Assembly (NCBI GenBank): GCA_963845635.1
Contig: CAWJSW010000007.1
Span: 83,655-147,654, forward strand
DNA length: 64,000 nucleotides
Direction of reading: 5' to 3'
Origin: an uncultured Solirubrobacteraceae bacterium
Lineage (GTDB): Bacteria; Actinomycetota; Thermoleophilia; Solirubrobacterales; Solirubrobacteraceae
The notes under the pieces were generated by a model, which saw only the letters and a list, made by a program, of their open reading frames with translations, did not search any database and was not told the origin of the DNA. How positions within the stretch are numbered: position 1 is the stretch's first letter; the number at the start of each line of letters is the position of its first letter. Shown one piece after another: positions 25,416 to 44,671 of the stretch. The translations under genes and the position numbers were made by a program.

Positions 25416-25511
25416 TGCGCCCGGCGGGAATCGAACCCGCGGCCTGCGGCTTGAAAGACCGCTGCTCTTTGGCTCCCCGAAGAGAACCGTTGACCACTGA
25501 GCTACGGGCGC
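25416..25511 (-). tRNA. Atypical tRNA with anticodon UUC (Glu) and a hairpin inserted in the D-loop; CCA not encoded
   Basis: Acceptor stem GCGCCCG/CGGGCGC plus A73; U8 A9; D-stem GCUC/GAGC with a 31-nt loop; anticodon arm GCGGU-CUUUCAA-GCCGC; variable loop AGGCC; T-arm GCGGG-UUCGAUU-CCCGC. Confidence 0.85.
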
Positions 25512-42363: not shown

Positions 42364-43437
42364 GTGGAACTCGGGCTGGCGACGTTCGCGGACCTGGCAA
42401 GCGGGATCAGCCCGCGCCAGCGCATGCGCGAGCTGATCGAGGAGGCGGAGCTGGCCGACCAGCTGGGGCTCGACGTGTTCGCGATCGGCGAGCACCACCG
42501 GCCCGATTTCCTGGTGTCCTCGCCAGCCGTGGTGCTGGCGGCGGCGGCGGTCAGGACCGAGCGCATCCGCCTGTCGAGCGCGGTCACCGTGTTGAGCTCC
42601 GATGACCCGGTCCGCGTGTTCCAGCAGTTCGCGGAGGTTGACCTCCTGTCCAACGGTCGCGCCGAGATCATGGCCGGGCGTGGGTCGTTCATCGAGTCCT
42701 TCCCGCTGTTCGGTTACGACCTGGACGACTACGACGAGCTGTATGCGGAGAAGCTCGATCTGCTGCTCCAGCTTCGTGAGCAGAACCCCGTGACCTGGTC
42801 AGGCAAGCACCGCCCGCCGCTGGCCGACGCGGGGGTATGGCCGCGACCGCTCCAGCAACCGCTTCCCGTATGGGTCGCGGTCGGGGGCTCGCCGCAGTCC
42901 GTGGCTCGGGCGGGGACGCTGGGGCTGCCCCTGACGATCGCGATCATCGGCGGCCAGCCGGAGCGGTTCGTGGGGCTGGTCGAGCTCTACCGCGAGGCGC
43001 TTGCCCGAGCGGGACACGAGCCCTCCCGGGGGCGGCTGGGGATCAACACCCACGCCTTCGTCGGCGCCAGCTCCGCGCAGGCCGACTCGGCGTTCGCGGC
43101 GCCGTATCTGGCGATGATGAACCGCATCGGGCGAGAGCGGGGCTGGCCGCCGTCGGGGCGAGCAGAGTACGAAGCGCTGCGCTCGCCGCAGGGCGCGCTG
43201 GCGGTGGGCTCACCAGAGCAGGTAGCCGAGAAGATCGTCTTTGAGCATGGGCTGTTCGGGCACGATCGCTACATCGCCCAGATGAGCGTCGGCGCGGTCG
43301 CCCACCGCGACGTGCTGAGCTCGATGGAGCTGTTTGGGACGCGGGTCGCGCCGCTCGTGCGCGAGGAGCTCGCCCGACGAGAGACAGGCGCGGATCAGCC
43401 CTCCGCAAGCGCAGGCCGTGTATTCAGCGCCGACTAG
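42364..43437 (+). CDS. LLM class flavin-dependent oxidoreductase
   Basis: [37 protein letters not shown] and [13 protein letters not shown] motifs. Confidence 0.92.
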
Positions 43438-43567
43438 CGCGGGGCGCTGCTCGGCGCAAGACCGGGCGCCGATGGGGGCTGACTCGTACATCCGTCCAGA
43501 AAAGCGGCCGCAGGCGCACTTCCCTTCCATCGCGGCAGGGCAACCCGCACACTCAGCCTCCGATCAA

Positions 43568-43650
43568 CCAGACTGCAAGGGCAAACCCGTCGCGAGGCGG
43601 GGGCGCAAAGTCAGGGGTCTCGCCGAGACGGCCCGGCTGCCAGCCAAGCA
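43568..43650 (+). ncRNA. c-di-GMP-I (GEMM-I) riboswitch
   Basis: AAGGGCAAA-CCCGUC-GCGA-GGCGGG-GGCGCAAAG-UCAGGGGUCU...GAGAC-GGCCCGGCUGCC matches the GEMM-I core (GNRA-capped P2, GCAAAG junction, P3); AAGGAGG follows immediately. Confidence 0.88.
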
Positions 43651-43661
43651 AGGAGGCCGCC

Positions 43662-44180
43662 GTGATGCTGACGCCGTCGAACCCGTCGAACCCCACGATC
43701 GCTGGCGCGACGCACGGTCGCACGCACGCGGGGCAGCGCTTGGCGCGACGCGCAAGCGAGAACGACGGCCTCAGCCTGCTGGAACTTCTCGTCGTGGTCC
43801 TGATCATCGGCATCCTCGCCGCGATCGCGATCCCGTCCCTTCTGAGCACGACCAACAGCGCCAACGACGTGCAGGCGAAGGAACTCGTGAAGACGGCTGA
43901 GACGGCCGCGGAGGTGCTCGGGACCGAGCACGAAAACTACCTGTCCGTCACGCCGACGGAACTGGCCGCGGAGGAACCGGCGATCTCGAGCACGCCCAGC
44001 AAACAGCACGCCTATCTCAGCAGCGCGACGCCGGGCGAAAACGAATACTCGGTCACCGCGACGGCCACCGACGGCGACGAACTGACGGTCGCCATGAGCG
44101 CCACGGGGACGGTCACCCGCAGCTGCTACAGCCCGATCCTCAAAACAGGCTGCGACGGAGGCGAAAGCTCGAGCTGGTAG
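43662..44180 (+). CDS. Type IV pilin-like protein (class III signal peptide)
   Basis: ENDG|LSLLELLVVVLIIGILAAIAIP with G-1 and E+5; C-terminal Cys pair RSC...GC...W. Confidence 0.88.
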   Translation: MMLTPSNPSNPTIAGATHGRTHAGQRLARRASENDGLSLLELLVVVLIIGILAAIAIPSLLSTTNSANDVQAKELVKTAETAAEVLGTEHENYLSVTPTELAAEEPAISSTPSKQHAYLSSATPGENEYSVTATATDGDELTVAMSATGTVTRSCYSPILKTGCDGGESSSW

Positions 44181-44302
44181 CGACCTTGGGGGAGACAGGC
44201 GCGGGCCACGGATGGACCGCGCGTCAAGGATCGGCGGCCCACGGATGGAAGCCGCTGAGGGGCTGAGCTCCCACGGAAGGAGAGCCGCCCCGGGGGAAAC
44301 GC

Positions 44303-44339
44303 CGGATCCCGCGGGCGCGAAGGGCGCCTGCGGGATCCG
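44303..44339. repeat. 16-bp GC-rich inverted repeat abutting the tandem array
   Basis: CGGATCCCGCGGGCGC-gaagg-GCGCCTGCGGGATCCG, with one G-T pair. Confidence 0.7.
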
Positions 44340-44448
44340 TGCGTGTTGCCCAGCTGTGCGGTGCGTGTTGCCCAGCTGTGCGGTGCGTGTTGCCCAGCTG
44401 TGCGGTGCGTGTTGCCCAGCTGTGCGGTGCGTGTTGCCCAGCTGTGCG
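44339..44448. repeat. Five perfect tandem copies of a 22-bp unit
   Basis: GTGCGTGTTGCCCAGCTGTGCG at 44339, 44361, 44383, 44405 and 44427; no spacers. Confidence 0.95.
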
Positions 44449-44542
44449 CCCGACGGCCTTCCCCGGCGCCGTGGGCATAGTATCTCCGTCCCGATCAAGA
44501 CCCAGCGAGACCAATCTCGAGGACTGCCGCGTCATACCCACC

Positions 44543-44671
44543 ATGAGGCTTCTGCACAAACACAAATGGAGTGAGTGGGAGCGAGCTTGGGGCAAAGGCA
44601 GCGCGAAAGGCTACGTTCTCGAGCGCAAATGCGTGACCTGCGGCAAGGTCCAGACGAAGGTCATTCGGTGA
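44543..44671 (+). CDS. 42-aa microprotein with HxH...CxxC, a putative zinc binder
   Basis: MRLLHKHKWSEWERAWGKGSAKGYVLERKCVTCGKVQTKVIR; TAGTAT -10-like box at about 44478. Confidence 0.55.
   Translation: MRLLHKHKWSEWERAWGKGSAKGYVLERKCVTCGKVQTKVIR

Follow-up and report, generated by a model that had tools for sequence, protein, structure and literature searches.

A c-di-GMP-I riboswitch directly upstream of an orphan type IV pilin gene in an uncultured Solirubrobacteraceae bacterium, with a putative translational platform

Layout of the locus

The subject of this report is a short leader and the gene behind it on contig CAWJSW010000007.1 (C7) of assembly GCA_963845635.1, a 4.17-Mb, 16-contig metagenome-assembled genome (MAG) of an uncultured Solirubrobacteraceae bacterium. 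The stretch analysed, called the window throughout, is 64,000 nucleotides of that contig, and in it an aptamer of the c-di-GMP-I (GEMM-I) class, named for the second messenger cyclic di-GMP (c-di-GMP), lies immediately in front of a gene for a type IVa-like prepilin. A first-pass annotation, made from the letters of the window, had proposed here a riboswitch directly controlling an orphan type IV pilin in a soil actinobacterial lineage, and the lineage is as it supposed, Solirubrobacteraceae within the Actinomycetota. The putative promoter, the 75-nt aptamer, and the ribosome-binding site (RBS) together span about 115 nt, with the Shine-Dalgarno (SD) sequence between aptamer and start codon. 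The features, all on the forward strand, are these:

43548..43553 (+), candidate -10 hexamer CACACT, conserved as a hexamer, with a predicted transcription start near 43560
43556..43561 (+), GCCUCC, perfect complement of the SD stretch GGAGGC 43652-57
43570..43644 (+), c-di-GMP-I (GEMM-I) aptamer, from the RF01051 match and covariation on 22 orthologues
43573-75 with 43641-43 (+), aptamer P1
43581-82 with 43605-06 (+), aptamer G-C pairs
43586-91 with 43596-601 (+), first hairpin of the aptamer, GCGA loop at 43592-95
43609-43638 (+), second hairpin of the aptamer
43610..43621 (+), 5' strand of the second hairpin (GUCAGGGGUCUC), which can pair instead with 43653-43666 (SD, spacer, and GUGAU)
43628..43638 (+), 3' strand of the second hairpin, homologue of the family-wide putative sequestrator
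43650..43656 (+), SD AAGGAGG, read from the sequence (core GGAGG 43652-56)
43662..44180 (+), orphan type IVa-like prepilin of 172 aa, GTG start, the next codon being ATG 43665

The aptamer match stops 6 nt before AAGGAGG and 17 nt before GTG 43662, so that the adjacency described at first pass holds, and the statement that the aptamer ends at the AAGGAGG does not. Comparisons between leaders below use a set of 22 orthologous loci, all with the aptamer-then-pilin layout, and in 22/22 of them a GGAGG or GGGAG stands 5-14 nt before the start codon. A terminator scan finds no terminator-like site in 43300-44600, which agrees with the earlier remark that none lies between aptamer and pilin. Given the 17-nt gap and the lack of a terminator there, control of translation initiation is the natural reading, as it had been in the first-pass annotation.

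The aptamer and its ligand site

Searched with cmscan against Rfam 15, the whole window has two matches above the gathering score, one of which is c-di-GMP-I (RF01051) at 43570-43644 (+), scoring 54.6 bits against a gathering score of 35 (E = 6.7e-8) over the full model, 1-87. A whole-genome search recovers the same match, and the GEMM-I identification made at first pass is thus upheld by a significant Infernal score. Every conserved position is preserved in the window aptamer, whose score is on a par with those of its relatives. Across the 22 orthologous leaders, pairing amounts to 97.7% in the first hairpin and 90.1% in the second, the AAA linker (43607-09) between the hairpins is invariant, and the covariation score of the aptamer is reached by 0 of 500 shuffles, with 3 pairs changing on both sides; the test is informative for the two hairpins, the two G-C pairs flanking the first hairpin not being scored. 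One relative with an unusual length is the 109-nt GEMM-I at L037 (G019:C4:403013-403121), which has about 30 nt inserted into its second hairpin and still scores 58.4 bits.

The nucleotides that contact the ligand, read off the cmscan alignments and the sequence, are G43580, A43607, and C43640. G43580 is position 11 of the RF01051 model, unpaired and 5' of the G-C pairs, within AAGGGCAAA. By Vc2 numbering it is the equivalent of G20, which contacts one guanine of c-di-GMP, as the first-pass annotation had it, and A43607 and C43640 are the equivalents of A47 and C92. As read from the sequence, this G/A/C set is the standard c-di-GMP site. An A at position 20 reportedly indicates 3'3'-cyclic GMP-AMP (cGAMP; Kellenberger 2015, Nelson 2015), and the A20 of the cGAMP-sensing GEMM-Ib is not found: the window has G43580, and that column is G in 22/22 orthologues. 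The first hairpin carries a GCGA loop, of the GYRA kind, and there is no tetraloop receptor, a combination that makes it the second GEMM subtype of Weinberg 2007 (PMC1950547). The class II c-di-GMP model is unmatched, only clan CL00126 (class I) matching in the gathering-mode scan and in a regional scan at E <= 1.

Some attention is due to the related model RF03167 (c-di-GMP-I-GGC), for which the window aptamer scores 59.0 bits against a cut-off of 59 when 1.3 kb is scanned with laxer filters, and which is not reported for it in the gathering-mode scan of the whole window. Three relatives (L033, L108, and L147) are assigned to RF03167. The Rfam consensus lines differ at the A47 position, with GACGCAAAG in RF01051 and GACGCGAAG in RF03167, and that this position defines the variant is our reading of those two consensus lines. 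The window carries A43607 (GGCGCAAAG), and L033, L108, and L147 also have A, mismatching the RF03167 consensus there. Membership in RF03167 is rejected on this A, not G, in the window and its relatives, and the aptamer is filed as ordinary c-di-GMP-I; the higher RF03167 score probably reflects the inclusion of P1 in that model and its G+C-rich seed. On these alignments the aptamer is a genuine c-di-GMP-I aptamer, with c-di-GMP as the predicted ligand.

The pilin and the pilus machinery

The product of 43662..44180 scores above the cut-offs of both prepilin N-methylation and cleavage models, at 23.2 bits against 21.2 for PF07963 and 25.6 against 16.3 for TIGR02532. Its GTG start is supported by the orthologue L070, which reads GTG ATA. 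A 36-aa leader ends at the predicted cleavage site G36|L37 (43767-43772; motif G36|LSLLELLVVVLIIGILAAIAIPS), a Glu occupies mature position 5 (E41), and C155 and C164 lie near the C-terminus. G36 is invariant in the pilin family, as are E41, C155, C164, and W172 among the orthologues, which are 45-56% identical to the window pilin.

A profile of 28 relatives matches type IVa pilins of solved structure, each across most of its length, among them the Thermus thermophilus PilA PDB ID: 6xxd (E = 5e-14), the Pseudomonas aeruginosa PAO1 PilA 8tum (E = 9e-13), and the Neisseria gonorrhoeae PilE 2hi2 (E = 1e-10). The AlphaFold2 model, with a mean predicted local distance difference test (pLDDT) score of 82.9, has a 52-residue N-terminal helix (39-90) followed by a four- to five-stranded sheet (strands 118-156). 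Foldseek of this model against the PDB gives nothing significant, the best being the PAO1 pilin 8tum at E = 0.4, and the fold assignment accordingly rests on the sequence profiles and the order of secondary structure elements. From these the product is classed as a type IVa-like pilin.

The rest of a pilus system is encoded elsewhere in the genome. The four T2SSE ATPase matches in the genome are all on contigs C14 and C2, none on C7, and the only prepilin motif on C7 is that of the window pilin, which bears out the first-pass statement that the window holds no pilus machinery. Contig C14 has a complete type IV pilus cluster, encoding PilB (T2SSE plus MshEN), PilT, PilC (T2SSF), PilM/N/O, PilD (A24_N_bact plus Peptidase_A24), and a 158-aa pilin with a short leader, to which the window pilin is 43% identical. 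On sequence comparison the window pilin is therefore a true orphan paralogue of the cluster pilin, as its earlier label of orphan had it, with its machinery on another contig, and the C14 machinery would be what processes and assembles it.

With 21 GGDEF matches, c-di-GMP signalling is well developed in this genome. The MshEN domain binds c-di-GMP in some ATPases, and in the extension ATPase PilB (G000:C14:618582-620663; L008 4583-6664) the N-terminal domain is of the MshEN type (PF05157, 63.9 bits). Visual inspection does not clearly show conservation of the Arg and Gln of the published binding motif; a second c-di-GMP input at the pilus motor through this domain may exist.

Two further c-di-GMP-I riboswitches are found in the genome, at G000:C4:280991-281068 (-) (L001) and G000:C8:604712-604792 (+) (L003), preceding secreted proteins of 218 aa and 495 aa, neither of which matches any Pfam family. 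Pilin, 218-aa protein, and 495-aa protein make up a three-member riboswitch regulon with a putative surface function. A GGDEF-domain gene (G000:C4:283231-283701, +) lies about 2 kb from the C4 riboswitch. In the 495-aa-protein class (L003, L018, L030, L032, and L038), the aptamer ends in ...CCGAAggag and its 5' side begins with UCCCG, so the GGA of the SD can extend P1 directly, which suggests an OFF design beside the putative ON design of the pilin in the same genomes.

Conservation of the riboswitch-pilin pair

To see how widely the pair is kept, the first open reading frame downstream of each GEMM-I was read in 61 related genomes, 37 of the genus and 24 from other families. GEMM-I is present in 40/61, at about 100 copies in total. 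A member of the pilin family directly follows GEMM-I in 15/37 genus genomes, 2 of which have duplicate copies, and a pilin does so in 4/24 genomes from other families; 7 more close orthologues with the riboswitch occur in Solirubrobacteraceae MAGs. The closest pilin loci belong to uncultured Solirubrobacteraceae and Solirubrobacterales MAGs from soil and peat. The genome survey of GEMM-pilin pairs and GGDEF genes proposed at first pass gives a recurrent pair and, in the window genome, 21 GGDEF matches.

No conserved partner gene is found beside the riboswitch-pilin pair, the neighbours being unrelated between genomes, and riboswitch plus pilin behave as a free-standing unit. In four genomes from other families of the order (L016, L019, L025, and L074), the same aptamer precedes homologous pilins but stands within the pilus cluster, 69-84 nt ahead of the start codon of a short-leader pilin. 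L025 has T2SSF/PilC upstream of it, L016 has a second pilin and PilD downstream, and L019 has a minor pilin downstream. The genus module differs from these in being detached, with 17-30 nt from aptamer to start codon and with a long pilin leader.

The remaining GEMM-I copies of the genus stand mainly before two classes of secreted protein, of about 215 aa and about 495 aa, both recurring in many genomes of the genus and represented in the window genome. In two genomes, G014 and G024, two GEMM-I copies lie about 775 nt apart (L013 and L015; L040/L044 and L041/L045), each before a secreted paralogue of about 200-218 aa, and this tandem riboswitch-gene block is duplicated within both genomes.

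The putative expression platform across the family

What the aptamer might do to the pilin gene is best approached from the 22 leaders together. RNAfold of the aptamer by itself often missed the known fold, so the consensus pairs were imposed by pattern. When left unconstrained, the minimum free energy (MFE) fold of most orthologues has a long helix in place of the second hairpin, pairing the loop and 3' strand of that hairpin with the 3' end of the SD, the spacer, and the start codon.

This complementarity of the RBS to the 3' half of the second hairpin is stronger in cognate combinations. Duplex energies average -16.4 kcal/mol for cognate and -14.2 kcal/mol for non-cognate combinations, a value reached by 0 of 5000 permutations, and the advantage persists once near-duplicates are removed (p = 1e-4). 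Against dinucleotide shuffles the mean z is -2.13, and 11/22 leaders are individually at p < 0.05. No cognate advantage is found for the controls, which were the 5' half of the second hairpin, the leader, and the first hairpin. The complementarity also follows lineage-specific sequence, being GAUAGCUC:GGGCUAUC in most leaders, GACAGCUC:GGGCUGUC in L055 (loop CCCC with AUGGG), AGACAGCUCGACC:GGUCUGAGUUGUCU in L033 and L108, and CACGAGACC:GGUCUCGUG in L109.

In a MAFFT alignment, the predicted sequestrator helix is 78% paired in register and at most 59% paired when the partner strand is slid. One sequestrator pair changes on both sides in five sequences. Where column 68 goes from U to C, column 51, with which it pairs in the aptamer, and column 106, with which it pairs in the RBS, both go from A to G, and such joint change is what helices that cannot coexist should show. 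The signal is stronger from register-free duplex energies than from column-based covariation. Imposing the aptamer fold makes the start codon more accessible in the models of most leaders. Taken as folding models and sequence statistics, these family-level patterns argue for a translational ON switch.

A side observation concerns the start codon itself, which is UUG in 7/22 orthologues and GUG in most others. UUG pairs without mismatch in the predicted sequestrator helix and GUG gives one A-G mismatch, and the choice of start codon may be shaped by the RNA switch.

The window leader and its candidate promoter

In the window, two pairings of this general kind are available. ACGGC 43628-32 in the 3' strand can pair with GCCGU 43659-63, and GGCU 43635-38 with GGCC 43655-58, a duplex of -15.4 kcal/mol. 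For the 5' strand, 43610-21, the alternative partner is 43653-66; this duplex (-16.3 kcal/mol, z = -2.4 relative to dinucleotide shuffles) is present in the MFE folds of all constructs that begin at 43540-43555. Neither pairing can coexist with the aptamer, and ON is accordingly the prediction of both. An RBS of the form GGAGGC(C/U)..GCCGUGAU sets the window and L070 apart as a subtype.

The 5' boundary of the transcript matters to what follows. A YAYAYT-type hexamer (TACACT, CACACT, TATATT, CATACT, and similar) is present in 22/22 leaders, 14-27 nt upstream of P1, and the sequence between hexamer and P1 is variable. A conserved hexamer with variable sequence downstream is the pattern of a -10 box, and CACACT at 43548-53 would be that box, putting the transcription start near 43560. 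A consensus sigma-70 promoter scan called no promoter, CACACT included, as expected from the G+C content.

The stretch GCCUCC at 43556..43561 was considered as a 5' anti-SD element. Folds computed with 45 nt of 5' flank pair it with the SD, in the centroid as well as in the MFE structure. Yet L107, the closest orthologue, lacks it, as do L054, L073, and others, and cognate leader-RBS duplexes have no edge over non-cognate ones (p = 0.29). As the main 5' anti-SD it is rejected, being unconserved, without cognate advantage, and located at the probable transcription start; judging from the position of the hexamer, it probably lies at or before that start.

Proposed mechanism and alternatives

The reading we favour, with moderate confidence, is a translational ON switch in which c-di-GMP raises pilin translation. 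A promoter with the candidate -10 CACACT would drive a short leader that folds into the aptamer. Without ligand, the ribosome-binding region, meaning the 3' part of the SD, the spacer, and the start codon (about 43653-43666), would pair with a strand of the second hairpin and block 30S binding. Binding of c-di-GMP would lock the second hairpin into the aptamer, free the ribosome-binding region, and let the pilin be translated. PilD would then process it for use by the type IV pilus machine encoded on the other contig, and at high c-di-GMP the window pilin would be added to the pilus or substituted in it. The first-pass annotation had spoken of a choice of pilin by c-di-GMP, and we infer the same.

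Several observations weigh against this reading. The family-type pairing with the 3' half is at chance in the window (z = -0.06 against shuffles) because the RBS, GGAGGCCGCC, is extremely G+C-rich and can pair with almost anything. Enforcing the aptamer there moves modelled accessibility from 0.20 to 0.36 for the SD, from 0.21 to 0.51 for the spacer, and from 0.36 to 0.54 for the start, which is modest, and in a few orthologues, L028 and L060, the change is in the wrong direction or nil. Column shuffles of the sequestrator are not significant, with 82/500 as good for percent paired and 41/500 for double changes. The mature +1 residue is Leu in the window pilin and Phe in most relatives. Should transcription begin upstream of 43556, the SD could be held by GCCUCC with ligand or without. 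The predicted ON direction draws on family-level statistics, which are weakest for the window leader.

The most direct competitor is a translational OFF switch, in which closure of P1 by c-di-GMP brings the flanks together so that GCCUCC:GGAGGC extends P1 and hides the SD. It has in its favour a 6-bp G+C helix that appears in the centroid, and in the MFE fold with 45 nt of flank alongside most of the aptamer; this is the strongest leader-RBS duplex of the family at -18.7 kcal/mol, L028 and L046 have CUCCC/CUUCC-GGCU stretches of their own complementary to their RBS, and in the other riboswitch class of the genome P1 extends directly into the SD (CCGAAGGAG), which suggests that this organism has OFF designs. 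We consider it unlikely, for the loss of GCCUCC in L107 and other leaders and the lack of a cognate advantage noted above count against it, GCCUCC overlaps the stretch just after the -10-like hexamer of all leaders and so is probably at or before the transcription start, and an 11 x 8 nt internal loop would part its helix from P1. It could also be that the aptamer binds its ligand but acts other than through RBS accessibility, for instance on mRNA stability or Rho access, or that switching has been lost here and the pilin is approximately constitutive. The small modelled change in accessibility, the chance-level sequestrator, and the atypical mature N-terminal Leu would all fit, and yet the aptamer is intact with a score on par with its relatives, the riboswitch-pilin pair persists in many species while the genes around it are replaced, the window does offer a pairing exclusive with the aptamer (z = -2.4), and the window pilin retains the family invariants, so this is a rather improbable account.

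A ligand other than c-di-GMP, either a different cyclic dinucleotide (3'3'-cGAMP, for example) or whatever a variant class binds, we regard as very improbable. The RF03167 score, which under laxer filters reaches its cut-off and is above the RF01051 score, speaks for it along with the assignment of L033, L108, and L147 to that model, and the first-hairpin internal loop is GGC where the consensus has GAC; set against these are the A at 43607, where the two consensus lines differ, shared with the relatives and a mismatch to RF03167, the G and not A at position 20, and the 21 GGDEF domains of the genome. The translational ON switch stays the favoured reading.

Relation to known systems

We found no paper on riboswitches in Solirubrobacterales or on class I riboswitches with pilin genes in Actinomycetota, and in that respect the arrangement is, as the first-pass annotation thought, not known as described in the lineage. 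GEMM was linked to genes for pili and flagella at its first description in 2007 (cpaA, pilM, pilO, pilQ, and pulF; PMC1950547), and the novelty is consequently modest. What is new is the lineage and the well-conserved, compact, putatively translational platform; the kind of control is known.

With the type members of RF01051, Vc1 (gbpA) and Vc2 (tfoY) of Vibrio cholerae, the window aptamer shares the two hairpins joined by AAA, the closing P1, and G20/A47/C92, as well as a place in the 5' untranslated region of a gene with a surface or motility function and action close to the start codon. Unlike them it has a GYRA (GCGA) loop without tetraloop receptor, a high-G+C actinobacterial host, and a pilin target, and its platform would use the aptamer's own second hairpin as the sequestrator of the RBS, with the direction of control as predicted above.

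The Cdi2_4 class II c-di-GMP riboswitch of Clostridioides difficile lies upstream of the pilA1 operon (Bordeleau 2015, listed in PMC11477304). The two loci are alike in having an RNA sensor directly upstream of a type IV pilin, a monoderm host, a long pilin leader, and, if the ON direction predicted here is right, the sense of control, since in C. difficile the ligand switches expression on. They differ in that the window riboswitch is class I, not II, and in that Cdi2_4 works by transcription anti-termination on a whole pilus operon, whereas in the window the control would be translational, with one pilin gene, remote from the machinery, as its target. In Geobacter, GEMM-I copies precede pilus and cytochrome genes, and many are cGAMP-specific (Weinberg 2007, PMC1950547; Kellenberger 2015); these GEMM-I and GEMM-Ib aptamers resemble ours in standing in front of type IV pilus genes. 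There the targets are assembly genes (pilM/O/Q), many aptamers are of the A20/cGAMP kind, and the competing structure is a terminator, whereas in the window the target is a subunit gene, position 20 is G, and the putative competitor is the RBS itself.

The pilin 3' region and other window features

One further element lies downstream of the pilin gene:

44299..44344 (+), strong G+C-rich hairpin of about 20 bp, 119 nt after the pilin stop codon, with no U tract

The region 44181-44345 folds at -102.2 kcal/mol, z = -5.4 against shuffles. The terminator scan did not call the hairpin, which may end the pilin transcription unit, and the 3' region has no Rfam match at E <= 1. Between stop codon and hairpin, CCACGGA(T/A)GGA occurs three times (44206-44216, 44239-44249, and 44271-44281, spaced 33 and 32 nt), each copy predicted in or near a hairpin loop, and the hairpin runs into five perfect 22-bp tandem repeats of GTGCGTGTTGCCCAGCTGTGCG (44339-44448). 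Elsewhere in the window, cmscan finds a tRNA match at 25416-25511 (-), 66.6 bits, with a 25-nt insertion in the D-loop region of the model.

What the finding means for the lineage

The finding leaves current understanding of riboswitches and of c-di-GMP signalling unchanged. Its interest lies in the organisms. Solirubrobacterales are abundant in soil and almost uncultured. The pili studied in Actinobacteria are of the Tad/Flp type only (review of monoderm pili, PMC6916266), and type IVa pili have not been studied experimentally in Actinomycetota (cf. PMC6916266). A conserved c-di-GMP riboswitch before a pilin gives a testable handle on when pili are made and with which subunit, and the compact module with its 22 natural variants could serve as a translational c-di-GMP reporter in high-G+C hosts.

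A broader scenario, which we put forward tentatively as a possible but doubtful one, is that control of a pilin by c-di-GMP-I within the pilus cluster is ancestral in Solirubrobacterales, that the genus copied the unit out as a free-standing cassette while the cluster pilin lost its switch, so that c-di-GMP would pick the subunit and cease to govern pilus production as such, and that the RBS and the UUG/GUG start of a compact translational ON platform co-evolved with the second hairpin. If true, a second messenger would here drive pilin switching in a monoderm actinobacterium that has a type IVa pilus.

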